Below, piece by piece: positions 38,020-54,070 of a stretch of 64,000 nucleotides of DNA. The notes beneath the pieces were generated by a model that searched no databases, had not been told where the DNA came from, and was given only the letters and a program-made list of their open reading frames with translations. Numbering within the stretch: position 1 is the stretch's first letter; each line of letters opens with the position of its first letter. The position numbers and the translations under genes are program-made. Source of the stretch: an uncultured Methanosarcinales archaeon (GTDB lineage Archaea; Halobacteriota; Methanosarcinia; Methanotrichales; Methanotrichaceae); NCBI GenBank assembly GCA_963843555.1, contig CAWJKV010000003.1:64001-128000 (forward strand), written 5' to 3'.

Positions 38020-39168
38020 CTAGGGTTTTGGCTTCAAAAGCCCGGGCAGCATTGACGCTGCGATGGTATCCTTTCTCTGCGCCATTCTGTAGCCCGTCAC
38101 TACCAGCCTATTTCCGCTGAGGTCTCTGTCCAGATCCGGGTCTCCCGTGTCCACCAGGAGGCAAGATAGCTCCGCCAGCTTATGGGGCGTGGATACTATT
38201 ATTAAGTTCTCTGCTCCAGCCCGTCGCAGTACGGCGGAACTTATCTGCTGGCTGCCTCTGCCCAGGATGAAGCCCTGGGCTCCGATGGGGCTGACAATGA
38301 TTTTGACGCTCTTTTCCCTTTCCAGCAACGCCAGGAGATCTCTCTCCGAGGCATCCTTGAGGAGGAGCTTTCCTTCCTGAACTACGTCTACGCCAAGCAG
38401 GGTCTTCTCCACGCCCAGCAGCTTGGCGATGCTGCTGGTGGTAGTCCCTGCTCCCAAGATGTAGGCAGAGCCGTCCCTCATGAATTCGGAGGCAAAGAGT
38501 GCGATCTGGTCCTTGAACTCTTCCTCACTTGAGGAGCTATAGATCCTCTTTCTCTCCTGCACCAGCACAGGTTGGTAGGGCGTTTTGGCTATTGCATAGA
38601 GCCTGGTCTGCATCTCTCCTGCTCGGTAGAGCTCCTCGTCTACATCCACGATCTCCGTCTCTCGTGCCCGAAGTTCGCTTCTTATAAAGCCCTGCGCCAG
38701 CTCTGATGCCGCTTCAGGACTGATGGCAAAGACCCCGGAATGCATTTTCACGCCTGCCGGAATGCCAAGGATAGGCACCTGGCCCGATTGTGACGCCACA
38801 TCCCGTGCTGTCCCGTCGCCTCCGCAAAATAGTATCAAGTCAACCCCTTCTTCCAGGAAAACCTTGCAGGCGGCTTTTGTATCCTGGGAGCTGGACTCGT
38901 CAGTGGATATATGAACTATCTCGCAACTCAGGCCGCACTCTCTTAGAGCTCTCTCACCCATTTCGCCGCTGGCAGTAAAAAAGAGAATGTTTTTCGCTTC
39001 CCGGGAAAGCCTTTGCAGGCATGCTCGGGCCCGCTCAGCCGCCTTAGGATGAGCGCCTCTGGCTCTCGCTTCATCTGCCAGGCCGTCTGTTCCCTTCAGG
39101 CCAACGGCTCCGCCCATACCTGCAATAGGATTGATCAGGAAGCCGATTCTACCAGCTTTCTCTGCCAT
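38020..39168 (-). CDS. ATP-NAD kinase family protein (archaeal type)
   Basis: NPIAGMGGAVGLKGTDG, GGDGTARD, GIPAGVKMHSGVF and LGRGSQQIS motifs. Confidence 0.88.
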   Translation of the reverse strand: MAEKAGRIGFLINPIAGMGGAVGLKGTDGLADEARARGAHPKAAERARACLQRLSREAKNILFFTASGEMGERALRECGLSCEIVHISTDESSSQDTKAACKVFLEEGVDLILFCGGDGTARDVASQSGQVPILGIPAGVKMHSGVFAISPEAASELAQGFIRSELRARETEIVDVDEELYRAGEMQTRLYAIAKTPYQPVLVQERKRIYSSSSEEEFKDQIALFASEFMRDGSAYILGAGTTTSSIAKLLGVEKTLLGVDVVQEGKLLLKDASERDLLALLEREKSVKIIVSPIGAQGFILGRGSQQISSAVLRRAGAENLIIVSTPHKLAELSCLLVDTGDPDLDRDLSGNRLVVTGYRMAQRKDTIAASMLPGLLKPKP

Positions 39169-40522
39169 CAGACCTTAGGTAGCTTGGCGAGGGACTGCTT
39201 CACCAGATCTGCAGGATACTCATAGTCTACCAGCTTGCCGTCGTTATAGGCATCGTAGGCAGCCAGATCGAAGTGGCCGTGTCCTGTCAGGGAGATGAAG
39301 ATGATCTTGTCCTCGCCCGTCTTTTTGCATCTCAATGCTTCATCAATGGCGGGCTTGATGGCGTGAGCGGCCTCTGGTGCTGGAATTATTCCTTCGGTGC
39401 GGGCGAAGAGGGTGGCCGCTTCGAAGACCTCTGTCTGCTGCAATGCGACAGCCTCAATCAGTCTGTCATGGACCAAATTGCAGAGCAGTGGCGCATCTCC
39501 ATGATAGCGCAGGCCGCCGGCGTGAATGCCGGGCGGTATGAAGTCATGGCCCAGGGTGTACATCTTTATCACGGGTGCCATGCCTGCCGTGTCGCCAAAG
39601 TCGTAGGCATAAAGCCCTTTAGTCAGACTTGGGCAGGCGGAGGGCTCACAGGCCACCATACGCAGATCCTTCTTATCCTTCATCTTATCGGGGATGAAGG
39701 GGAAGACCATCCCAGGGAAGTTGCTTCCGCCGCCGCAGCAGCCGAACATGACATCAGGATAGTCTTCAGTCATCTCGAACTGCTTTCTTCAGTTCCAGTC
39801 CCTCAACGGTCTGATGGAGGAGGACATGATTGAGCACCGACCCCAGGGCATAATTAGTATCGTTATGGCTGGCAGCATCCTCTACCGCCTCAGAGATGGC
39901 CATACCGAGGCTTCCTGGTGTGTCTGGAGTCTCGGCCAGGACCTGTCTGCCGTAGTTAGTCCGATCAGACGGGCTGGCGAGGCACTCTGCTCCCCAGACG
40001 CGCATGGCACTCTTGCGGTAGGGTTTGCTGTCAAAGCTGGATCTCACCATGTAGACCGTACATTTCAGGCCGAAGAGACAGGTGGCCAGGCTGAGAGCCG
40101 AACCCCACTGGCCTGCGCCCGTCTCTGTGGCCAGCCGCTCCATGCCCTCTTTCATATTGTAATAGGCCTGGGGGACGGCAGTATTGGGCTTATGGCTTCC
40201 TGCCGGGCTGACGCCCTCATATTTGTAGTAGATTTTGGCTGGCGTCTTGAGCGCCTTCTCCAGGGCGGCGGCTCGATACAGAGGCGTTGGCCTCCAGAGC
40301 CTATAGATGTCGCGTACCTCTTCAGGGATGTCTATCCAACGGTCCGTGCTCATCTCTTGCTGGATGAGCGCTTTGGGAAAGATCATCTCCATATCCGCGG
40401 CCGCAGAGAGGCTTCAGGGTCCCGGGATGCAGAGGCGGGTCCAGGGGCGTGGGCATGTCGGCAGCAACGTTATACCACTTCTTGGGGATCTCTTCCTCGT
40501 CGAGCAGGTACTTGATCTTCAT
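39168..40522 (-). CDS. trpB2: Tryptophan synthase beta chain type 2 (TrpB2), two frameshifts
   Basis: [43 protein letters not shown] and PAPEAAHA over three frames. Confidence 0.93.
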
Positions 40523-42142: not shown

Positions 42143-42952
42143 ATGAAAGTTGCACTCAAGCTCGCCTATCTGGGCGATAACTACTACGGCTTCCAGCGCC
42201 AGCCGGATCTGGTTACTGTGGATAGTGAAGTCAGAAAAGCGTTGACAAAGATCGGCGTCATCCACGGCGACTTCTGCTATGCGGGCAGGACGGACAGGGG
42301 CGTCTCGGCTCTGGGCCAGGTCATCGACTTTTGGATCGATGAGGAAAAAGAGAAATTGACCCGGCCCAGGTGCGTCAACGGCCGGCTGCCCCGCGATATC
42401 TGGACCTGGGCCTGGGCACGGGCGCCTATAGGTTTCAGCGCCCGCTGGAATGCTCAGTGGCGGGAGTACCGCTACCTCCTCTGGCATCCGGGCCTTGACA
42501 CGGAGTCGATGCGCGGCGCTGCTGCGCTCCTATTGGGCGAGCACGATTTCCGGAACTTCTCCTCTGCCAAGGTAGGTACTGTAAAGTCGGTGCAAAAGTT
42601 GGAGATCTCTGAGCAGAATGGCCTGTTCACCTTCGACATTCGGGCGGATGGCTTTCTCTGGAATATGGTGCGCAAGATCGTGGGCGCCCTGGAGAAGGTG
42701 GGCTCGGACCAGAAGGATATGAGATGGTTCAAAGATCTTCTCCGGCCGGAGCTCAACTATGGCGCGCCCACCGCCCCAGCCGAAGGCCTCATCCTCATGG
42801 AGGTTGGCTATAAGGGGCTGGAGTGGCAGGTGGACGGGTACTCCCGGGCACGGGCGGCCAAGGGACTGGCAGCGACGGTGCAGAGCAGGATGGCGGGGGC
42901 GAATGTGGCGAGAGTGATGGAGAGGGCGATGGAATTGGATGCGGGGGATTAG
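42143..42952 (+). CDS. truA: tRNA pseudouridine(38-40) synthase
   Basis: YLG..YYGFQ.QP, AGRTDRGVSA, GEHDF.NF, FLWNMVRKIVG and APAEGLIL motifs. Confidence 0.95.
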   Translation: MKVALKLAYLGDNYYGFQRQPDLVTVDSEVRKALTKIGVIHGDFCYAGRTDRGVSALGQVIDFWIDEEKEKLTRPRCVNGRLPRDIWTWAWARAPIGFSARWNAQWREYRYLLWHPGLDTESMRGAAALLLGEHDFRNFSSAKVGTVKSVQKLEISEQNGLFTFDIRADGFLWNMVRKIVGALEKVGSDQKDMRWFKDLLRPELNYGAPTAPAEGLILMEVGYKGLEWQVDGYSRARAAKGLAATVQSRMAGANVARVMERAMELDAGD

Positions 42953-43280
42953 GAACCTGGGTATGAGGTTCAATTAGGATCAGCTTTTTCTGCAGGGATC
43001 TCCTGGGGCGGATAGCAGTTCTCAACCATGCGGGCTTCAATCTCGCGAAGCATTTCAGGACTATTTTCAGATGATGCATCTTACACGTACTAAATTATAT
43101 ATTTAGGAAATAGGCCACAGAACTTCTTTGAGGGCTCAGGCCAAAACCTGCAAGTTATGCATAGCGCCTTATGCAACCATCCAAGTGGCCTAAAACTGGC
43201 CTTCAAGCCGATGGTGTGGGTGCCCCTGAGCCGCCCTCTTTAGCTTTTCTGGCCCGCTCCTGGGCCTCCTCATCCATGAA

Positions 43281-43955
43281 CTATGTTATGTGGTTATTGA
43301 GATAATCCAGCAAATTATCAAAACTCTTCGCTAGTTCCCCTCCTTTTTTTGTCTCTTCATTGTAAGCAAGGAAGTTGTATAGTTTTGTTTGCTCATCATA
43401 CCATCTTTGTTCAAGTCTATGCTCATCACAATTTTTGATATTGTTTTTAATCTTTTTTGTTGTAGCTTCAATTTCCATTTGAAACTTATCTGCTTCCTTT
43501 TGTTGTTTGCTAATATCGTCAGTTTTGGTTTTTAAATCATCGGAGTAAGGAAATGCCAAGCTAATTGAGCCAATAATAACCCATAAATCTCGATTGGCTT
43601 TAGCTAATTCCAATTCGTATTCATCACTTTTTTTGATTGAATCCCAATACTTTTCAAGAGATTGCGTATACTTTTTTTTGCTATCTGCGTCCGTTGATTT
43701 CTCTAATAATTCGCACCTACAATCCAAAAAACCACTTCTCATATTAAAAGCAAATAAAGAGCCGTATAAGCCTAACATAAGTGATTTTTGGCCTTTTAAT
43801 TGGCTAAAGAGTTGTTGCCGGTTCTTTCGAAAATCGGTTTCGATTTTTTGTCCCTCTATTTTGTATGTAACGATACCTGTAACCAAGCCGCCAACTAAGG
43901 CACCAAGGATGCCAGCAGCTCCAGAGATAACTTCAGGTTGTACCATATATAACAT
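43281..43955 (-). CDS. AT-rich hypothetical protein with an N-terminal membrane anchor and helical/coiled-coil body
   Basis: 224-aa ORF with hydrophobic GAAGILGALVGGLVTGIV and markedly lower GC than the flanks. Confidence 0.7.
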   Translation of the reverse strand: MLYMVQPEVISGAAGILGALVGGLVTGIVTYKIEGQKIETDFRKNRQQLFSQLKGQKSLMLGLYGSLFAFNMRSGFLDCRCELLEKSTDADSKKKYTQSLEKYWDSIKKSDEYELELAKANRDLWVIIGSISLAFPYSDDLKTKTDDISKQQKEADKFQMEIEATTKKIKNNIKNCDEHRLEQRWYDEQTKLYNFLAYNEETKKGGELAKSFDNLLDYLNNHIT

Positions 43956-44403
43956 CTTAGTCTATATGTACTAAAATATTTCTACATATCCTGGCTCGCA
44001 GGTGCAATAGACATGAGCAGCATCCTTTAGCTAGTCAAATTTTCCTTTTTTTGATTATCAAATTTAACGTATTAATCCTGAAAGCATGAACCCTAAGCTG
44101 GTCACCTCTTTAGTTACACCTTCTCCGAGATATTCATTGAGCCCTGAAATGTGCCGCAAGATTACGTTTTTATGTGAGAATTAGTTCTGGTACATTTTGC
44201 ATAAAATTTTTCACAATGACGTAGAACTATTTCCAGTTTTTACGCTCCCCGGCTGTAAGTTACTATACTGTCTTTTTTGTCTGGAGGCGGTTCTGCGAAG
44301 GTCTGGAAATGGAAAAGAAAGCCCTAACATATTTATATAAACATCCTTCTAGTCTCAAATCCTTTGAGGTAATTCTCCCAATTGAGTCTCATTGAGAACT
44401 GAC

Positions 44404-44530
44404 CGGACCTCATCGGCATGCTGCTATCTTCAAAGCTCGTCCCGCGTTTGAGTCGATGAGGTTAGTCAATCGCCCCACCAATCCAGAGACTTCTTTTTCA
44501 ATTCCAGTGAAGCATCATTTTCTATGAACT
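44404..44530 (-). pseudogene. Degenerate relic of the antitoxin/PIN-toxin junction found intact at about 45069-45200
   Basis: Shares CGGACCTCATCGGCATGCTGCT, CGTTTGAGTCGATGAGGT and TCAATCGC.CCACCAATCCAG with the intact locus. Confidence 0.8.
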
Positions 44531-44682
44531 AGCCTGCCGAGGGCTTCATGGATATAGGCTGCAGGGTGCCGGACTCGCATGTGGGCAAGCGCTCGCGGGC
44601 GCGAGCGGCCAAGGGACTGGCAGCGACGGTGCAGAGCAGGATGGCGGGGGCGAATGTGGCCAGGGAGATAGAGAGGGCAATG
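44531..44682 (+). repeat. Diverged copy R2 of the truA 3' end
   Basis: Contains GCGGCCAAGGGACTGGCAGCGACGGTGCAGAGCAGGATGGCGGGGGCGAATGTGGC, identical to truA at about 42854-42909. Confidence 0.92.
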
Positions 44683-44719
44683 AGGCAGTGTGACGAAACC
44701 GCGAGAACAGAGTGTCGCT

Positions 44720-45151
44720 TCAATTATAATCTGCTTTTTCGGCCATGATCATTGCCGGCGTTTTTCTTTGAATATTGGTTGAGTCGAAGTCCTTGTCGAA
44801 GCTCACAAGTATTAGATCATTATTTCGTGCTGCAACATATTGATACGCATCGTCGAAATCCAGATCCTGCTCTCTCATTGCAGATAATAAATCCCGCAGA
44901 TCTGCAAGGCTCAATGCGATTCTCTTGACTCCAGTCTCCTCTAAAAGATCCGATAGAAAAGCTGCAAATACATCTTCCTTTTTCAGGCGAGAAGTTATTA
45001 TTCCAATTGAATAGAGCGTGAATTCCGTTAGAGATATTTCGTCCAACTGAACCATCTGCAAGAACTTGCGGACCTCATCGGCATGCTGCTGCCTTAAGAG
45101 TAATTCTAGCCATACGTTTGAGTCGATGAGGTAGCTCAATCGCTCCACCAA
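44720..45151 (-). CDS. vapC: PIN-domain (VapC-like) toxin
   Basis: YLIDSNVWLE N-terminus, LDFDDAYQY and SFDKDF acidic PIN motifs. Overlaps the upstream small gene. Confidence 0.88.
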   Translation of the reverse strand: MVERLSYLIDSNVWLELLLRQQHADEVRKFLQMVQLDEISLTEFTLYSIGIITSRLKKEDVFAAFLSDLLEETGVKRIALSLADLRDLLSAMREQDLDFDDAYQYVAARNNDLILVSFDKDFDSTNIQRKTPAMIMAEKADYN

Positions 45152-45342
45152 TCCAGGGACTTTTTCTGCAATTCAAGAGAAGTATAATTTTCTTTGAACT
45201 CGGCCAATCCGCCCGCCCAGTCAAACCGTAGCTTTTTGCGCTTGGGTTTGCTCTTTTTTTCAGCGAGGTATTGGGCGAAATCCAGAACCTCTTGCTGGTG
45301 TTGGGAGGAAAGTTTGGCCATAAGTTCGCGGATCTGCTCCAT
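45136..45342 (-). CDS. Antitoxin, DUF2281-like
   Basis: 68 aa with EVLDFAQYL and LRFDWAGGL, directly upstream of the PIN toxin. Confidence 0.8.
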   Translation of the reverse strand: MEQIRELMAKLSSQHQQEVLDFAQYLAEKKSKPKRKKLRFDWAGGLAEFKENYTSLELQKKSLDWWSD

Positions 45343-45445
45343 AGATGTATTTTGGAGGCTTATGGATGATATAATTTCCTATTTGCATCACACAACGCGG
45401 ACCTGAGCACCAGAAGTCTTGCCTAGCTGAACGGGGGATTCAGGC

Positions 45446-45627
45446 AGCCTGCCGAGGCCCCCATCCTCATGGATGCAGGCCACCAGGGGCTGGACTCGCA
45501 TGTGCACGAGCCCTCCCGGGCGCGGGCGGCCAGGGGGCTGGCCAGCGACGGTGCAGAGCAGGATGGCGGGGGCGAACGTGGCCCGGGAGATCGGGCGGGC
45601 GATGGGATTGGATGCGGGGGATTAGGA
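45446..45627 (+). repeat. Diverged copy R3 of the truA 3' end
   Basis: Runs from CCTGCCGAGG..CATCCTCATGGA through CAGCGACGGTGCAGAGCAGGATGGCGGGGGCGAA to TTGGATGCGGGGGATTAGGA, which includes the truA stop. Confidence 0.92.
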
Positions 45628-45696
45628 CGATCTGGTCTAGCAAGGCGAGAGCATAGATGCAAAGATATACTAAACATCAGCATAACATTAGAACAT

Positions 45697-45948
45697 ATGA
45701 GCGAGATAGTTTTGCAGGTGCCGGATGATGCATTACTGGCCCTGAAGATGTCCCCGGATGAATTAGGAAAGGAGCTAAGGTTGGCAGCTGCCGTGAAGCT
45801 CTTTGAATTGGGAAAACTATCATCAGGGGCGGCAGCCAGATTGGCAGGAATACCAAGAACGCTCTTCCTTGCTAAACTTGCGAACTACGGTGTTGATACC
45901 TTTCGCCTGACAGAAGAAGACCTCACGGCGGAGGCACCTCTTGTCTGA
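45697..45948 (+). CDS. UPF0175-family antitoxin-like protein
   Basis: ELRLAAAVKLFELGKLSSGAAARLAG..R..FL..L..YGV. The true start is at 45697; the ORF track extends into repeat R3. Confidence 0.88.
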   Translation: MSEIVLQVPDDALLALKMSPDELGKELRLAAAVKLFELGKLSSGAAARLAGIPRTLFLAKLANYGVDTFRLTEEDLTAEAPLV

Positions 45949-46426
45949 AGTCATATGCAATACATCGCCTTTGCAGTATTTGCATCAGATAGGTCAACTA
46001 AGTATCCTCCAGGCTCTTGTCGGATCTATTATCGTTCCTCCTGCCGTCCTAATTGAACTGGATGCTGGTATGGCAAAAGGACTGGACCTACCACAACCTG
46101 AGAACCTCAAATGGGTCAGAATACAAGCACCTGTCAGCGCCCGGGCCGCATCTCTAATAACAGATCTCGGACCTGGAGAATCCCAGGTACTAATGCTGGC
46201 CCTTGAAATGCCCGGAAGCATTGCACTTCTGGATGATGCACTGGCACGCCGCGTGGCCATAGCAAATGGAATACCGATTAAGGGCACTTTAGGATTGCTT
46301 CTGGACGCAAAACGTGTGGGCCACCTAAATGCGGTGGAGCCTTCTCTTGATAAGCTCCAGGAGCTGGGCTTCCGCCTCTCTCAACAGACACGGGAAGCTG
46401 TATTGAAGCTGGCTGGAGAGTCATAG
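45941..46426 (+). CDS. DUF3368-type PIN-like protein (toxin partner of UPF0175)
   Basis: NTSPL, VPPAV..EL, LGPGE, LLDD..ARR, GTLGLLLDAK, GFRLS and the C-terminal AGE. Confidence 0.88.
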   Translation: MSEVICNTSPLQYLHQIGQLSILQALVGSIIVPPAVLIELDAGMAKGLDLPQPENLKWVRIQAPVSARAASLITDLGPGESQVLMLALEMPGSIALLDDALARRVAIANGIPIKGTLGLLLDAKRVGHLNAVEPSLDKLQELGFRLSQQTREAVLKLAGES

Positions 46427-46477
46427 GGACTCTCACGATCTTTGGTGATGGCGATTTAATCTATAGGATATGGTCTT

Positions 46478-46628
46478 ATGGGCTGCCCGAGTCTGGACTC
46501 ACATGTGCACGAGCCCTCACGGGCGCGGGCGCCGGGGGGTCTGGCGGCAACGGTGCAGAGCAGGATGGCCGGGGCGAATGTGGCCGGGAGATGGAGAAGG
46601 CGATGGGATTGGATGCGGGGGATTAGGA
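46478..46628 (+). repeat. Diverged copy R4 of the truA 3' end
   Basis: CTGGCGGCAACGGTGCAGAGCAGGATGGCCGGGGCGAATGTGGC ... TTGGATGCGGGGGATTAGGAA. Confidence 0.92.
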
Positions 46629-47065
46629 AAGCCGCGTTATCGGCACATTTTCTTTCTGATAAGTCATAAGAATACAAATATCACACTTTATCGCGGTTGG
46701 ATATGATAACGGTTCTCAATTATACCTTTGTTTACAATAATTTAAACGCCTATACCGCATACAAAATACATACAATACAACTTTTTTTTGATAGCTACCA
46801 GTTATTATTATCCGTTATTATTAGTGCAACTCGAGTTTTAACTTCTGCATTTTTGATTCATAAATGTAATAAGATATCAGTAGAACTATCCTTAATTCTT
46901 AGGAACAGTTAAATACTATTATGAAAGATCCTTGATTGTAAAATTGGATGAAATTTGCCTAAGTGATTTGCATATTGGATGAAACTCTCTAATATAGTCA
47001 CTATTGGATTATCCAATATGGCATATACTTAAGACAAAATTCGGCCACATCAAGGAGGGAGAATA

Positions 47066-47569
47066 ACGAACAAATTAATAAAATTATATTTGACCATCGC
47101 TTTGGTCGCGATGGTATCGCTGGTAGCATCAGCATCTGCATCGTCTTTGACTCTGTCCGCGACTATGCCTCAAATTCTCTCGGTTCAATTTCCTGCATCT
47201 AATAACTTCGGGGATTTGATTCCGGGTAATACAGTCACGGCGGGTAACCAGGTTCATATCGAAGGCAACTGCTATTGGGCTTTATCTGTCTATGCCCAGG
47301 ATGACGGATACGGACACCACGGATATCTGACGCAGCAACACCCATCATCTATGCATGACTGGATACGTAATCCTGTATCTATGTACATCCCTACGTATGG
47401 GATAGGTCCAACGTCTCTTGAGTATTATTATAATTATAGCCCAATATCGGTTACGAGTGGCTTTGGTCCCATGGATATATACTATCAGCTTTCAACGATG
47501 TCTTCAGGAAGCGAAGATTCCAGATATCCATACACCATTACACTGGATTTCGTCCTAACTGCACAATAA
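47066..47569 (+). CDS. Secreted small beta-rich protein, candidate major pilin (WxL/Csu-like)
   Basis: Signal peptide ending ASASA. Mature N-terminus SSLTLSATMPQILSV, internal WALSV, C-terminal YTITLDFVL. GGAGG RBS upstream. Confidence 0.65.
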   Translation, partial: TNKLIKLYLTIALVAMVSLVASASASSLTLSATMPQILSVQFPASNNFGDLIPGNTVTAGNQVHIEGNCYWALSVYAQDDGYGHHGYLTQQHPSSMHDWIRNPVSMYIPTYGIGPTSLEYYYNYSPISVTSGFGPMDIYYQLSTMSSGSEDSRYPYTITLDFVLTAQ

Positions 47570-47601
47570 GGCCAGCTGATGATTAAGTGATATGGACAAT
47601 C

Positions 47602-47645
47602 GAGCTGAGCCATTCCTGTATAAGGAAGCTCGGCTCAATTTTTTT
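47602..47645 (+). terminator. Hairpin plus T-tract after the candidate pilin gene
   Basis: GAGCTGAGC..TTCCT-gtata-AGGAA-GCTCGGCTC followed by TTTTTTT. Confidence 0.6.
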
Positions 47646-47959
47646 AAACACGATAATACTTGAAACCCTCAATAATCTATGCTATTTCACTTAAGATTTT
47701 GCAACTCAGAAAATTCTTGCACTATCAAGAGCGATGGTGGTTCAATTGAGAATTAGGAGAGATTTGAACTTCTCTTTACCATAAACTTATTAAAGTAGAA
47801 AGCAATATCTAATATAGCCTTCAAGGGTTAAATAAATGGTGAAAAGACGATATGGCATTAATCGATCGTGTTAAGCTGAATATATTACTACTAAAATGGC
47901 TGTAATTCAGATCGATTTAGCATATAAATTAGAAATTTATTTGAGAGGTGTATTAGAAG

Positions 47960-48778
47960 ATGATATTCAAAAGCGTGGTAGTAGCGCCTGCATTGAGTCT
48001 AGCTCTGATTTTGTTGGCTGTTATGCCTGCTTGTGCAAACCTTACACTGGTTGGAGCGAAATATGAGGCTAATGTTATTCCAGGACAGCATATTGAAGAT
48101 GAAATAGAATTAAACCTCGGGGCTGAAGATCTCCCTGTGGATATAATGACGGAAATTCTTGGTTTAGGCCAGAGTCCTAATGGAGTATATACCATGATCG
48201 AATCTGATCAGGACGATGGACTCTATTCAGCCAAGCCTTTCTTAAATATATCACCCTCTAATTTCCATCTCAATCCTGGTGAATCAAAAAAGATGCTGAT
48301 CAGCGGTGACGTGCCCTTGGACATTGGAGATGGGTCAAGATACGCTCTGGCTAGCATTCGAGGGATATCTAAAGGAAGCGGACCCGTAGGGGTATCACTG
48401 GTGCTTAATGTTCCTATCCTGCTCAATATCACTGGTTCTAAACTCTCCAAAACAGCCGATATTGTGGGCCTGGACACGAGCAAGCCGGTCAATAATAATT
48501 GGAAGAACGCAACGCTTACGCTAAAGAACACCGGAAATACCAATTATGCGACCATAGTTAAGGCTGTCATGAAAGATGGTGAAGGAAATGTCATTGCCAA
48601 TTCTACAACCATCAATCAAGTTCTCCCGCCAATATTACCTGGAAAGTTGAGGGAATATGCGCTTCAGCTCAAATCCAACCGGACAATTGAGCCTGGAAAT
48701 TATGCTCTGAATGCAACAGCCTACTTGGAAGACGGGACTGTTCTAGCCAGCAAAGAAACGGCATTTGATGTTGTTTAA
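47960..48778 (+). CDS. Secreted two-Ig-domain protein resembling pilus chaperones / DUF916 WxL-interacting proteins
   Basis: Signal peptide. ISPSNFHLNPGESKKM in domain 1; LTLKNTGN, ILPG..R and PGNY in domain 2. Confidence 0.65.
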   Translation: MIFKSVVVAPALSLALILLAVMPACANLTLVGAKYEANVIPGQHIEDEIELNLGAEDLPVDIMTEILGLGQSPNGVYTMIESDQDDGLYSAKPFLNISPSNFHLNPGESKKMLISGDVPLDIGDGSRYALASIRGISKGSGPVGVSLVLNVPILLNITGSKLSKTADIVGLDTSKPVNNNWKNATLTLKNTGNTNYATIVKAVMKDGEGNVIANSTTINQVLPPILPGKLREYALQLKSNRTIEPGNYALNATAYLEDGTVLASKETAFDVV

Positions 48779-48796
48779 TTTATACCATCGGGAGCG

Positions 48797-48975
48797 CTGA
48801 GGGTCACGAATACTCCGATCTTTAGGTGGGGATGAAGTGAACCCTCGCACAATTTTTCAGGCTCCATCAATCAATGAACCGTTAATCGTGGAATAAAGGG
48901 GATCCGAGCAATAGGACTCGATGATTTCTGGATTCCGGAAAACGGCGGCGTGCGGCCCGAAGCATACCCTGTCTT
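48797..48975. mobile_element. Probable IS200/IS605-family end remnant or structured non-coding element, with no transposase
   Basis: GAGGGTCAC-gaatACTCCGATCTTTAGGTGGGGATGAA-GTGAACCCTC nested hairpin. It resembles IS200/IS605 subterminal hairpins; this match is from recall, not a search. Confidence 0.5.
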
Positions 48976-49138
48976 TCAATGCATTAGTTATATATATGAT
49001 AAGTAACTTACTCATATTATTATGTGTGTTTCAGTCTTGCCAGTTATTAAAACCAACTCAATTAAATTTTGCTGTACTTCTTTAATTTATTATATAGCGG
49101 AATGGAGAAAGATCAGAATATAATCACCGAAAAACATT

Positions 49139-49747
49139 TTGATAGTATTGCATGGCAAAGGAAAAGGGGAAAAAATGGAGTACATGAAGGATCCAATAGA
49201 CTGGAAGGCTTCACATGGACTCAAATCATTTTTTTTCCTTATTATTATAATAATTCTCTTAACTGAAATCTGCTTTGCAGAACAAACACCAATCATTGAG
49301 GCCGCACCTGGGCAGCCTATCGGAAATGTATTGACTTTAGGCGGGGATTCTGGCGGGATTACGATTGGTGTATCTCCCATTATCTCAGATTGGATCCTGG
49401 ATCCAACTAAACCAATTTGCACCAGGGAAACCACCCTTGAGATAGATTGCAGAGGACCCTGGAGGATCACTGTCTCAGCAGATGTACCAGCTCAAGGTCA
49501 TCTGGCTGAATATGATACATCCAGCTCTGCCTATGTCCCTGACGGAATAAGGCTGAAAGACTCTATGATCGTCATTGCCAAAGGAGGAAACAGCGTCGAC
49601 CTCTCTCATGGGGGAGTGCTTCTGGACGGTGATGGAAGAGCTACTGTTCTATTGACTTTCATCCAGAAGGCATCCTTGGATGATAAATCTCTGCCCTCTG
49701 GCAATATTTATCAAATTAATATAATCTTTAAAGGATTAAAACTCTGA
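49139..49747 (+). CDS. Secreted small beta-rich protein, candidate minor pilin (start probably later than the ORF start)
   Basis: Hydrophobic signal FFFLIIIIILLTEICFA. WRITVSAD...GHL and C-terminal YQINIIF parallel the 47066 protein. Confidence 0.6.
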   Translation: MIVLHGKGKGEKMEYMKDPIDWKASHGLKSFFFLIIIIILLTEICFAEQTPIIEAAPGQPIGNVLTLGGDSGGITIGVSPIISDWILDPTKPICTRETTLEIDCRGPWRITVSADVPAQGHLAEYDTSSSAYVPDGIRLKDSMIVIAKGGNSVDLSHGGVLLDGDGRATVLLTFIQKASLDDKSLPSGNIYQINIIFKGLKL

Positions 49748-49751
49748 GGGC

Positions 49752-52700
49752 ATGATGATCCTTCTATCTAAAACGTTGGCCGGAATCTATCGCTCGCGGT
49801 ACTACTACAAATCGGCCCCGAAATGGATCTCTGCAAAGGGACAGGGAGGACTCAGCAAATGGGGAAAGCATGTATCCTCCTGGATTCAAGCCTTCATGGT
49901 CCTATCCGTATTATTTGCTCTCGCTGAAGCATCAGGTCATGATACTGACCTTTATACTATCCAAATTGACCTTCCCGCAGAGATCATCCATGATGTGATG
50001 ATCATTGATACTCTTCCAAGTGGGCTGGTATATAGTGCAGGCAGCTTGAAGGTGACAGGCGCTGCTACCAATATGTCGGAGACTATAGCCTATCCAAATG
50101 ATGGCAGTCAGCCTGTGACCATAACCTGGAGCTTTGGCGATCTGGACAATTCTGCAGACGAAGACATTTTGATTCAATTTCAGGTTTTGGTAGCTGATAC
50201 GGATCAGAACAGGGATGGAATGATTTTAGCGCCAAGCGTAGCGCTTCTCCAATGGAGGGATCAAGAGGGGTTTGCTCAATCCAGCAGCACCAAATCAACT
50301 GCCGTTAGGATCATTGAGCCCGACCTCCAGATAAAGCAGCGATTCATGCCTCCATCTGCAAAGATCGGGGAGACTGTGACCTGCACCATTTCTCTTTGCC
50401 ACATACCCAGCAGCCACTCAGATGCCTTCGATGCGGAGGTTGTAGAAAACCTTCCTCAAGGATTGATTTACACACCCGGTTCAATGGAGATAGTCGCCGG
50501 GCCCAAAGGGAGGTGTGATGATTCTAATAGCCAAGAGCTACGATGGCACTTTGATAAGATAGATATGTCTTGGGCAAAGACTACCGAGATCCAGCTTAGA
50601 TATAAAGCAACTGTTGATAAAGGAGCTAAGCAGGGTTCAACGCTAAACGGCACTGCTGATCTATCCTGGGCTAGCAGCGTGGGAATCTATCCCGAAAAGA
50701 GAACCTATTTCGAGACGGCTAGTGGAAGCATAACTATCGCTTCCACGCCACCGGCATTCGTCATAACCGTAGCGGATTATCCCAATCCCATTCGCCCCGG
50801 CGATGAACTAACTTATGCAATTAATTACAAAAATATAGGAGGCTATGCTCAAGGCGCCGCAATTCAGGCCACCTACGATCCCAAAGTCGCCTTCGTCTCC
50901 GCCGTCCCCGCGCCCGACCAGGGCTCGGACAGCCAGTGGACGCTGGGCGACCTCATGAACGGGGCTTCGGGCACAATCGAGGTTAAGTTGGGCACCGGAT
51001 CATCTTTAGCGGACGGAACCTTGCTCACCAGTTCGGCCAGGATCGCCGACCAGGACGGCGTTTCTGCCCAGGATACTGCCATCACCAGGGTCATGACCAC
51101 CGCTCCAAACCTCCAGATCGAGAAGGCGGCCTCCGATCGGTTCATCCGGCCGGGAGGCGCTCTCAACTACACCATAACCTACGGCAACTCCGGAAATACG
51201 GAGGCTGAAAATGTCACCATAACCGATCTCGTTGACGGCAACCTTGACTTTGATCCTGCCGACGCCACCCCAAGAGCTAGCAAGATCTGGAGGGATGCAG
51301 AGGGGACGCATCTGTGGTGGAACGCGAGCATCCTAAAATCCGAGAGGCTCTCGCCGGGCGGTTCAGGCAAAATAGATATTCGCGTAGGCCTGCCCCCAGT
51401 TCCCGAACATCCCCGGTTCGACTGGGTTTACAACAACTACAAGATCGATTCAGACCTGAGTGAGGGCAAGTTCAAGATGCTGGAGACTGCAGTTATCCAC
51501 TCCCTCTATGTGAGGAAGATGGCGGAGGCGCAGGCCTATTTTGCGAATGAGATGGTTAACTACACCATTATTTACGGAAACGACCTGGCACTTGATGCCG
51601 ATAGAGCGGTGGTGATGGATGTTCTCCCTGATCCGGAATTTATGGAGTTCATCGAGGCAAATCCGCAGCCAACCGCCATAAAGAATAACGTTTTGGTTTG
51701 GGCACTGGGCACAATTCCTCCCAAAAGCAGTGGAACCATCAAGGTCTATCTGAGAATCAAAGAGAACCATTCTGATATCCGATTCAGATCCACCCAATCC
51801 GTCTCCGGCCAGGGCTACGTCCATTTTGACCAGAGGCTGGACACTGCCCAAAAGCCCAACAGCCTGACCAATTTCGCCAACATTACCGCCAGCTACATGG
51901 GTATGCCCGAATCCGATGAAAGCTCTGCAACTATAATGCTTGCTGATGCCCTGGGAACGGCAGTAAGCATCGTAGGCCACGGCAGCGGAACATATTCCAG
52001 GGATGAGGAGTCCCAGCTCTACTCCAAGGACAAGACAATTCAGATGAAGACCAGCCTCAAAGAGAGATACCGGGCATCCACTTTCTCTCTGCCCCGGGGC
52101 AGGTCCATAAACTACGACTCCAAATGGTCTGAGGTCCAGAGCGCCGAGAACCGGGTGACCGGGGCCTCTATGATTGAGCGTTATACGTATGCCAGCAGAA
52201 TCGACCGAAATAGTACCTTGAGCCTGGACAAGAACGGCTCTATCCTTGCCTCAGATACATCCTTCGAGGGAGCGGGCCATGTAGGACTGACGAAGCGCTC
52301 CAACGCAAACCTTCCATATTCATTTCAGGGAGCTTTTACCTACGAGTCGCAGGAGGACTACCTGGGCAGCTTCAAGGTCTCCACCAAATTTGATGAGTAC
52401 GGCAAGAATGCCAAATCCAGCCGCTCTGCCTCAGGAGTGGGTTATGCTGCTTCCGACAAACGCATCGGCACGAGCCAGAGAAGCTACGAATCTGGAACAG
52501 GCAACTATCAGGTAGAGGATCGCATTGAAACTCAAACCAACTACCTGGCCAAATACATAAACGCCTCATATGGATCCCTGAAATACAACTACACTCAGGA
52601 TTTTAGAGTACCTCTTTCCCAGAAATGGAGCGAAGGCATGTGGTCCAGATCGGGCACTCTGCCCGTCAAGGATTCGAATAGCTCTGAGCCAGCCAGTTTC

Positions 52701-53852
52701 ATTGGCGAGAAGTTCTCTCAGGCAGATTATCTCAAGAAGAACACTACAGCTAAAGGCCTTGACGAGATGGATACCGAGGCAGAGTTCTCAGGACGTGCTC
52801 AGTTCAAATCGCAATATGTCAAGTCAAAGGATCAGACCAGAGATGAGCTCAGCCTCTATGATGAATATGTTGGAAAATACAAAATAAACCGCAAGTTAAC
52901 GCTCAATGGGGCTGCAACATTCAATGAACCGCACCTTAGCATAAGTAAAGTTGGCAGCATGGATCCTGCGGGAGGCAGCTTCATCAACTACGTCCTGACT
53001 GTGGTAAATGATGGCAACCGCGCTCTAGGGCCGGTCTATGTCCTGGATCTCTTCCCACCTGGCACAGAGTATGTCTATTCCTCTTTGAGACCCTCAGAGC
53101 TCGCCTCCAACTCCGCCCAATGGACGTTGGTCAACCTGGGCATCGGATCAAGTTCTACCATCGAGCTGAAGCTCAATGCCACGGAGGATCAGGATAATCT
53201 AGTAAATCGAGTGCAAGCCCGCGGTGGCTATAACGATGAGTGGGTAAGCGCTCAGAATTATTCCGCCCTGCAGCTCAATTGGCTCTCCTGTTGTCCCCGG
53301 CAGTTGCGAGCTATCAAGACTGGCTACGTAGATGCCAATGACAGCACGCTGGTGCATTATAGAATTGCACTCAAGAACCGGGAGAGTTACATCATGGCGG
53401 CCACCATCAACGATGACTTGCCAGGTGGAATGAAGTTCATCAACTCCACAATGCAGCCGTCGGACTGCAGCTCCGGCCATGTGAGATGGAATGCCATAGA
53501 CCTGAAACCTAATGAGGTCAAAGTCATCGATTACTTGGCCAGAGCTCTTCAAAACGGTGTGTTCGTGAACCAGGCCCAGATAGAGACCACATCGTTCAAT
53601 GGATCTGATAGTGCATTTGCGGATGTCTCCTGTCAGGTGCAGATCAGGAGCAGCTCCAACTCTGGATCGGATTCGAACTGGAAGCCTCCTGCATGCTTTG
53701 GCCTCAACTGCACCCAGCAGGAATTTGAGAAGGACTGGAACGCTTGCGTAAGCTGCGCCGCTCAGGAACCAGAGACAGTACCCCAGGCGGGTCAGACCTG
53801 TCCAGCCTGCTCAGGAGGGAGCGGAGACGACGAAGGATATGATATTCCTTGA
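49752..53852 (+). CDS. Large cell-surface protein with multiple DUF11/Ig-like repeats and a Cys-rich tail
   Basis: Repeated PG..L.YTI.Y.N.G...A.NV.I.D.LP.G..F motifs, hydrophobic signal-like segment near the N-terminus, C-terminal CxxxxC/CxxC/CxxC. Confidence 0.85.
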   Translation: MMILLSKTLAGIYRSRYYYKSAPKWISAKGQGGLSKWGKHVSSWIQAFMVLSVLFALAEASGHDTDLYTIQIDLPAEIIHDVMIIDTLPSGLVYSAGSLKVTGAATNMSETIAYPNDGSQPVTITWSFGDLDNSADEDILIQFQVLVADTDQNRDGMILAPSVALLQWRDQEGFAQSSSTKSTAVRIIEPDLQIKQRFMPPSAKIGETVTCTISLCHIPSSHSDAFDAEVVENLPQGLIYTPGSMEIVAGPKGRCDDSNSQELRWHFDKIDMSWAKTTEIQLRYKATVDKGAKQGSTLNGTADLSWASSVGIYPEKRTYFETASGSITIASTPPAFVITVADYPNPIRPGDELTYAINYKNIGGYAQGAAIQATYDPKVAFVSAVPAPDQGSDSQWTLGDLMNGASGTIEVKLGTGSSLADGTLLTSSARIADQDGVSAQDTAITRVMTTAPNLQIEKAASDRFIRPGGALNYTITYGNSGNTEAENVTITDLVDGNLDFDPADATPRASKIWRDAEGTHLWWNASILKSERLSPGGSGKIDIRVGLPPVPEHPRFDWVYNNYKIDSDLSEGKFKMLETAVIHSLYVRKMAEAQAYFANEMVNYTIIYGNDLALDADRAVVMDVLPDPEFMEFIEANPQPTAIKNNVLVWALGTIPPKSSGTIKVYLRIKENHSDIRFRSTQSVSGQGYVHFDQRLDTAQKPNSLTNFANITASYMGMPESDESSATIMLADALGTAVSIVGHGSGTYSRDEESQLYSKDKTIQMKTSLKERYRASTFSLPRGRSINYDSKWSEVQSAENRVTGASMIERYTYASRIDRNSTLSLDKNGSILASDTSFEGAGHVGLTKRSNANLPYSFQGAFTYESQEDYLGSFKVSTKFDEYGKNAKSSRSASGVGYAASDKRIGTSQRSYESGTGNYQVEDRIETQTNYLAKYINASYGSLKYNYTQDFRVPLSQKWSEGMWSRSGTLPVKDSNSSEPASFIGEKFSQADYLKKNTTAKGLDEMDTEAEFSGRAQFKSQYVKSKDQTRDELSLYDEYVGKYKINRKLTLNGAATFNEPHLSISKVGSMDPAGGSFINYVLTVVNDGNRALGPVYVLDLFPPGTEYVYSSLRPSELASNSAQWTLVNLGIGSSSTIELKLNATEDQDNLVNRVQARGGYNDEWVSAQNYSALQLNWLSCCPRQLRAIKTGYVDANDSTLVHYRIALKNRESYIMAATINDDLPGGMKFINSTMQPSDCSSGHVRWNAIDLKPNEVKVIDYLARALQNGVFVNQAQIETTSFNGSDSAFADVSCQVQIRSSSNSGSDSNWKPPACFGLNCTQQEFEKDWNACVSCAAQEPETVPQAGQTCPACSGGSGDDEGYDIP

Positions 53853-53872
53853 ATTGAATAGAACGGAAGTCA

Positions 53873-53901
53873 CTGGCGGCAACGGCCCCGGGAGATGGAG
53901 A
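53873..53901 (+). repeat. Short, internally deleted copy R5 of the truA-tail repeat
   Basis: CTGGCGGCAACGG (13 nt) and CCGGGAGATGGAGA (14 nt) both match R4 exactly and in the same order, with the middle missing. Confidence 0.65.
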
Positions 53902-54070
53902 GGAGGACGCTTGTATTAGATAGACTGCAGAACCCGGGGATTTTTTGACTGGCTGCGACTCTGGAGGCTCTTCTTGCTTACTCCCTATATTCAATAAAGA
54001 CTTATATCTACGAGAATCCAAAAGTACAAGGGTCTATTGCCTGTAAGCTCTCTAATAACGGGACGATCTC

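Follow-up and report, generated by a model that had tools for sequence, protein, structure and literature searches.

In a 64,000-nucleotide (nt) stretch of an uncultured Methanosarcinales archaeon of the Methanotrichaceae (GenBank assembly GCA_963843555.1, contig CAWJKV010000003.1, positions 64,001 to 128,000; hereafter the window), truA, encoding a tRNA pseudouridine synthase, was followed by an array of accessory modules separated by direct-orientation copies of the last ~140-180 bases of the gene (R2 to R4 and the eroded R5; Table 1). Comparison within the genus Methanothrix shows the truA tail (R1) to be a genus-wide landing pad, which probably grows by homologous recombination of circles carrying a piece of the tail. 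A preliminary description of the window, made from its letters alone, had proposed truA as a recurrent insertion hotspot with its tail as a recombination anchor, a proposal strengthened by five pairs of filled and empty loci (window/G077, G012/G072, G009/G031, G013/G029 and L171/G010). In each pair, one stretch of the empty truA tail aligned twice to the filled locus, once within truA and once behind an extra module, and the extra module was always the one nearest truA. The five pairs show the Campbell pattern, with two tail sequences where the empty locus has one and the added module next to the gene. Relative to G077, the window held two extra modules, between R1 and R3. The copy in G009 held the old truA end together with the flavodoxin flank found in G005 and G031, and the truA of G009 ended in R2-like sequence followed by vapC. 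The pair G008/G026 was dropped because its far flanks differed. With G065 left aside, truA stayed in frame after insertion except in G030 and G077, where the shifts look like sequencing errors, and TruA C-termini varied freely past the last conserved Met.

Modules at this address have been exchanged between species. The vapC-DUF2281 module was 93% identical between the window and G009, compared with 81% for leuC and 79% for truA, and the UPF0175-DUF3368 module was 98.4% identical between the window and G077, compared with 93-96% for core genes. One two-gene module with its tail copy preceded four different neighbours (in G012, G013, G066 and L171). The genes behind truA differed widely in the genus and included toxin-antitoxin pairs, CHAT and AAA proteins, methyltransferases and surface proteins. 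The region upstream of DUF2281 was joined to tail nt 634 (numbered along truA) identically in R3 and in G009, and contigs from two public runs, out of four compared, span the R3-type junction; the runs come from related strains and none is this strain (best word share 0.18). Because of this identical junction in R3, G009 and the public-run contigs, modules appear to bring their own left piece of the tail. In the same runs, a skip from 42923 to 45597 was not counted, as it had the support of a single contig reaching 25 letters into one flank, and back-joints considered as circle junctions were explained by truA-type letters of other strains.

We postulate that most present copies descend from a single early duplicate of part of the truA 3' region, placed behind the gene. 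DNA between two direct tail copies would loop out as a small circle comprising the right part of a tail, the cargo and the left part of a tail, and in another cell or species this circle would enter the resident truA tail by a single homologous crossover, possibly of RadA type, mostly at gene nt ~676-790. Thereby truA would keep its frame and gain a new C-terminal tip, the module would land nearest truA, and the old flank would shift behind a hybrid copy. Repeated rounds would build the array, with toxin-antitoxin cargo perhaps aiding persistence while older copies erode.

The make-up of the copies is consistent with this. We compared 29 copies with 32 truA genes, excluding R5, C16a and G027_C56b from the tree and the identity counts as too short or weak. 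Over nt 640-715, the best match was another genome's copy for 24 of the 29 copies and a truA gene for four, with one tie; over nt 716-789, truA genes gave the best match for 17 of 26. A FastTree tree built on nt 637-715 placed 26 of the 29 copies in one clade (support 0.87), with the copies of G005, G008 and G009 among the truA genes, and the copies shared derived letters such as TA to CG at nt 697-698 (22 of 29). Left boundaries fell at nt ~388, 508-514, 609-621, 634-637 and 664-676, with clusters at 609-621 and 634-637. The copies are mosaics, with left halves from a repeat family shared among species and right halves like truA. Circles that bring a left tail piece with them and recombine further right in the resident tail would yield both mosaic copies and varied left boundaries, and since the copies are mosaic and their start points vary, homologous recombination of such circles fits better than a single integrase att site. 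The earlier idea that an integrase had made fresh duplicates of the resident gene end was not supported, given the separate clade of the left halves and the varying start points.

A classical integrase target would have its core in the conserved APTAPAEGLIL codons (nt ~610-640); each element would supply a new 3' end and displace the old one, leaving the array as a graveyard of integrase-less islands. The Escherichia coli e14 prophage, for example, is described as flanked by icd and a C-terminal fragment, icdC, whose recombination gives a chimeric working gene (PMC13626634). The truA array has the geometry described there, with the gene restored and a 3' fragment on the far side; many copies begin at nt 609-637, a recombinase remnant lies in the array of G077, and an event of this kind could well have created the first copy. 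If an integrase core were fixed at the left boundary, however, the displaced fragment should be host-type from its first base, whereas the left halves were family-type: the G009 copy was foreign at nt 639 and 675 while the G009 truA was host-type at nt 675, and longer copies began at nt 388-514. Unlike icd/e14, which involves one prophage with its own recombinase, the array comprises many modules of 0.5-7 kb, a species-shared repeat family and variable boundaries; most modules measured 0.5-3 kb and lacked an integrase, and no integrase was found in the window. Nor was a carrier found, as a 20-nt tail pattern matched no viral loci, none of 43 candidate viral stretches held a TruA relative, and the plasmid search gave no match. 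We therefore consider an integrase target of this type quite unlikely as the source of the array.

Within the window, the preliminary reading of R2, R3 and R4 as truA 3' repeats was borne out by blastn (E 1e-33 to 1e-48 against the whole 2.68-Mb genome, estimated to be 82% complete). By itself, R5 was undetected by blastn or nhmmer in the genome search. Its alignment with R4 consisted of three short exact blocks and two deletions, extending to about 53921, and the closest relative, G077, carried a ~165-bp copy at the orthologous place, ahead of the same toast_rack gene. On these two grounds R5 is a genuine eroded copy, in keeping with the stub first described. The right half of R3 and its flank matched the truA end of G077. 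Misassembly, raised as a possible source of the copies, was rejected since they differ from one another and recur in relatives, and since contigs from two of the public runs contain the vapC-DUF2281-R3 junction. We also considered whether the copies encode a small protein: R2 and the R4 of G077 are open in the truA frame, and 1-nt indels in many other copies weigh against it. This assembly seems to contain indel errors, as both trpB and thrS are broken into pieces; errors may likewise account for the 1-nt shifts of R3 and R4 and for the interrupted recombinase gene on C16 (below). The trpB-like gene of the window (39168-40392) was split into two open reading frames (ORFs) and was intact in relatives, probably reflecting an assembly indel.

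We evaluated the occurrence of the tail in 59 genus genomes, of which 54 had a match and 12 a second real match by BLAST (excluding a 23-bp match in G020), and a profile search of fetched loci added G066 and G067 to the latter. A direct copy lay within about 10 kb downstream of truA at 11 of 32 inspected truA loci, which were chosen partly for multiple matches and include contigs that stop near truA. A metagenome pattern scan gave true tails at six of 103 loci. Away from truA, this genome held three copies at two loci (C5:24632-24793, C5:27603-27782 and C16:91214-91308), as well as weak nhmmer matches at C12:74188 and C10:41763. The preliminary description had held that dispersal of the repeat independent of truA would refute its proposal, and this is partly the case, as copies away from the gene do exist. 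Such copies are few in number, neighbour accessory genes and are common to members of a single clade. The C16 copy adjoined a deleted vapC-DUF2281 pair, and the two C5 copies were flanked by cbiT and by a conserved ORF that neighbours thymidylate synthase. Since this C5 locus was empty in G026 and held different cargo between two tails in this genome, G027 and G079, tails away from truA may act as anchors too. The ORF-cbiT pair was present twice in G026 (L113 and L114; C1:517391 and 3597401) with equal scores. In G005, a truA fragment 470 kb from truA (L030:7959-8229) joined nt 388-444 to nt 579-791 beside insertion sequence-like genes. Neither the array nor the copies on C5 and C16 had a tRNA gene that might have been the target.

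The preliminary description had also suggested an integron-like accretion of cargo. Modules were added at one end in the five pairs, as in integrons, but the strict sense of the term did not hold. No IntI adjoined the array (PF00589 had three matches in the 82%-complete genome and none in the window), and the linked ~200-aa recombinase described below scored 62 bits against TIGR02249, for which the cut-off is 265. R2 to R4 contained no R boxes (RYYYAAC or GTTRRRY), and their folding z-scores ranged from -1.0 to +0.9 over both strands. Copies folded no better than shuffles (p = 0.35 against truA), the short palindromes made by their derived letters gave no stability gain over shuffles, and Rfam had no match in them. 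On these results from folding, Rfam and R boxes, an attC-like or RNA structure in the copies was rejected.

A second repeat accompanied the tail in some relatives. The ~300-bp repeat B lay behind the tail in G027, G077 and G030, and C is its diverged inverse; B/C was matched in 31 of the 59 genus genomes, with at least 12 matches in G027. Two of 16 B/C folds reached z about -2 and the rest did not. The repeat ends are palindromes of the form GTTRYRYA-N8-TRYRYAAC, an 11-6-11 arrangement that is also the layout reported for dif sites (PMC2958812, PMC8371274). Together these features look like those of a previously undescribed mobile-element family. In the window, one B/C end lay 200 bp past truA. 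This genome had three perfect 11-6-11 sites, all at tail-copy loci, and none at 13 other spacings, the motif itself having been derived from these loci. With a matrix built from 14 sites of other genomes, the palindrome in the window's B/C end ranked first in the genome (32.5 bits); seven sites exceeded 17 bits, compared with 0-2 above 18 bits in each of three shuffles. The array otherwise contained the weak site at 43078 and another weak one within the orphan ORF, and the matrix found no site at R2, R3, R4 or R5. A strong site at C2:301114 (22.6 bits) had no B/C repeat detected nearby. Elsewhere in this genome, inverted B/C pairs with 11-6-11 palindromes and a TATA-like box surrounded 2-4 kb of cargo encoding secreted or TPR proteins.

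A ~200-aa tyrosine recombinase converged on B at C16 and, as a remnant, within the truA array of G077; nine of 11 genomes with tandem arrays had no match to the C16 recombinase at E<=1e-10. The C16 gene (C16:88377-88982, L002:3377-3982), which adjoins thrS and is separated by 1.6 kb from a vapBC remnant with tail flanks, was frameshifted near its end, possibly through sequencing error. G082 encoded an intact 203-aa tyrosine recombinase (P0001) twice, in a module whose ends lie inside B; the module (L085:5620-9497 and L086:8563-12488) also held a GDSL-domain protein and a 275-aa ORF, and in L085 two further genes were each preceded by a right-hand B piece, as in a cassette array. The family is large, with 325 relatives at E<=1e-30, and 18 of 19 genome loci were labelled Methanotrichaceae or Methanosarcinales. 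A B/C end or site lay within about 1.2 kb of the recombinase gene end at seven of 18 archaeal loci, two of them identical to the query. This genome had no XerA match above the cut-off.

These sites allow for a dedicated site-specific system, resembling dif modules or integrons, in which the ~200-aa recombinase acting at 11-6-11 sites moves all modules and the truA tail is a passenger. The perfect palindromes at tail-copy loci point that way, as do the B/C ends abutting the recombinase at C16, in G077 and at the archaeal loci, and the recombinase module present twice in G082 with matching ends. Tail units away from truA in G027, G030, G079 and C5 also shared sequence from a C-end site through the vapC remnant and the tail, and for G030 and G079 the homology with the window stopped at the weak palindrome. 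Against it, the junctions of R2 to R5 lacked a site, none was found with up to two mismatches in the array loci of G009, G012 and G013 or at the second copy of G005, and the five filled and empty pairs broke in the tail rather than at 11-6-11 sites. Since G009, G010 and G066 had no B/C match and nine array genomes had no match to the C16 enzyme, B/C elements do not appear to explain the arrays, and that they move every module seems improbable to us. We suggest instead a secondary role, in which elements with B/C ends and the ~200-aa recombinase inserted beside an array and took the tail unit to new loci, where it would serve as a new anchor. A bolder version, unlikely but offered tentatively, is a two-layer archaeal gene capture, in which the truA-tail repeat family is a portable anchor that builds polarised arrays without an integrase, and the Methanotrichaceae-specific ~200-aa recombinase, together with its 11-6-11 sites, brings the anchor to further loci and so seeds arrays there. 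If so, the shared derived letters of the copies would be selected and not merely inherited.

It is very unlikely that the copies are only scars of local tandem duplications of a truA-vapBC junction, with deletion, unrelated insertions and chromosome rearrangement and no repeated entry at the tail: vapC-DUF2281 does lie directly behind truA with no tail copy in G019 and G026, several copies are flanked by vapC remnants, and downstream copies of the last 200 nt were found for 18 of 1886 called genes of this genome (truA being the sole gene with more than one, repeat-protein genes aside), yet such scars leave unexplained why genomes with about 80% identity share a module of 93% identity with an identical junction, and why one two-gene module precedes four different neighbours.

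Several observations weigh against recombining circles as the route. The proposed check of reads for excisions or circles covered contigs of related strains only and gave no circle or junction read, and no plasmid or viral carrier was found. The copies are only 72-90% alike, a poor substrate for homologous recombination today. Their clade rests on 79 columns and could be inflated by long-branch attraction, G009 offers only 11 informative sites, patchily distributed, and a crossover that was sharp at first could have been blurred afterwards by gene conversion or allele exchange. The recombinase remnant in the array of G077 is C-terminal and cut by a DDE transposase, and four of the 11 array genomes are less than 76% complete, so their missing recombinases are not shown to be absent.

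Unconventional circularizable structures are recombinase-free cargo between long direct repeats. By that definition the truA array resembles them, with cargo between direct repeats and no recombinase gene; it differs in that its repeat derives from the 3' end of a core gene on the chromosome, that it is polarised, and that its circles are postulated. In the orphan-module arrays described for the polymorphic toxins rhs, cdiA and mafB, which undergo C-terminal displacement, downstream modules share a homologous stretch with the gene ahead of them, through which the two can recombine (PMC4436062), and the truA array works in a like manner. In the present case, however, a housekeeping gene for tRNA modification is the anchor, whole genes are gained in place of a fresh protein tip, and the array is archaeal. 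Integrons, among them those of archaea and clusters of attC sites lacking integron integrases (CALINs), are reported as ordered arrays with addition at one end and toxin-antitoxin-rich cargo (bioRxiv 2022.02.06.479319); the likeness is confined to polarity and such cargo, as the truA array lacks attC folds, R boxes and IntI and its cargo faces both ways. Acinetobacter dif modules are described as accessory modules, including toxin-antitoxin pairs, surrounded by 11-6-11 sites with unlike arms (PMC13141974, PMC2958812, PMC8371274). The B/C sites recall these Xer-type sites (PMC13141974), but they are chromosomal, archaeal and embedded in a ~300-bp repeat, the spacers differ between the two ends, the linked enzyme of ~200 aa falls below the XerA cut-off, and 11-6-11 sites do not occur at every module boundary of the array.

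In a search of mainly open literature we found no publication on this locus and none joining Methanothrix, truA and duplication, although truA might appear among the targets in supplementary island tables. The means by which archaea acquire and retain accessory genes without integrons are poorly mapped, and here a core-gene tail serves as a genus-wide landing pad, with recent exchange of toxin-antitoxin modules between distant acetate-using methanogen species visible at one address. For these organisms, the tail might offer a neutral integration site. Caution is due with TruA C-termini and with comparisons based on truA, both of which are mosaic, and the small recombinase family and B/C ends merit separate study.

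The cargo was largely as first described. Pfam matches backed the PIN/VapC, DUF2281, UPF0175, DUF3368 and DUF11 labels. The pilin and chaperone genes assigned alongside the DUF11 adhesin had no Pfam match: ESM look-alikes of 47960-48778 included clusters named WxLIP and PapD, which we regard as a lead only, and the single-sequence fold of 47090-47569 was unusable (pLDDT 38). The intervals held their modules as stated, except that the first contained in addition a vapC-DUF2281 remnant and the recombinase-type B/C end. The absence of an integrase or transposase from the window also agreed with our scan, in which PF00589, PF00239, PF01609 and PF13358 had no match and other transposase families were not scanned. 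The junction of that remnant with R2 recurred at C5 and in G027, G030 and G079, and the spacer behind truA had matches of 72-88% at loci L016, L021, L022, L035, L037 and L038. For the orphan ORF no Pfam (E<=0.01), NCBIfam or PADLOC family was found. In place of the four-gene surface cluster G077 carried different cargo.

Table 1. Features of the truA array in the window (window positions unless a C number is given)
Feature	Position	Strand	Evidence or remark
truA, tRNA pseudouridine synthase, intact, 269 aa	42143..42952	+	PF01416, E 6e-29
R1, truA tail	42776..42954	+	gene nt 634-812; homology anchor
Spacer opening with an apparent decayed vapC 3' end	42960..43130	.	vapC likeness read from sequence; also trails tail copies in four relatives
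Weak 11-6-11 palindrome	43078..43105	+	7.9 bits; homology with the G030 and G079 units away from truA stops here
Truncated B/C repeat end	43132..43196	+	nhmmer E 1e-7; perfect 11-6-11 palindrome at 43152-43179
Orphan 224-aa ORF	43281..43955	-	35% GC; N-terminal hydrophobic stretch
Internally deleted vapC-DUF2281 remnant	44357..44530	-	fused to R2
R2, tail copy	44531..44682	+	82.5% over 137 nt vs truA tail
vapC-DUF2281 module	44720..45342	-	
PIN/VapC gene	44720-45151	-	
DUF2281 antitoxin-like gene	45136-45342	-	
R3, tail copy	45446..45627	+	83.3% over 180 nt vs truA tail
UPF0175 and DUF3368/PIN pair	45697..46426	+	
R4, tail copy	46478..46628	+	82.6% over 138 nt vs truA tail; truA homology from 46493
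Four-gene cell-surface cluster	47090..53852	+	last gene encodes a 1366-aa DUF11 protein
R5, eroded tail copy	53873..53921	+	
B/C inverted-pair loci, this genome	C7:111823-114801; C3:177853-181033; C5:24778-27353; C10:19529-24134; C16:88097-90580		

The UPF0175-DUF3368 pair matched the PADLOC candidate defence system PDC-S70 (E 9e-53) and occurred in other contexts at L040, L132 and L153. Within the surface-protein cluster, a second dispersed repeat (window 48776-48969) was also present on C2 and C5, and its contig depth in the public runs was very high. At C9:43270-48264 of this genome, the 3' end of a 932-aa ORF was present in about 14 tandem copies, ~370 bp apart.

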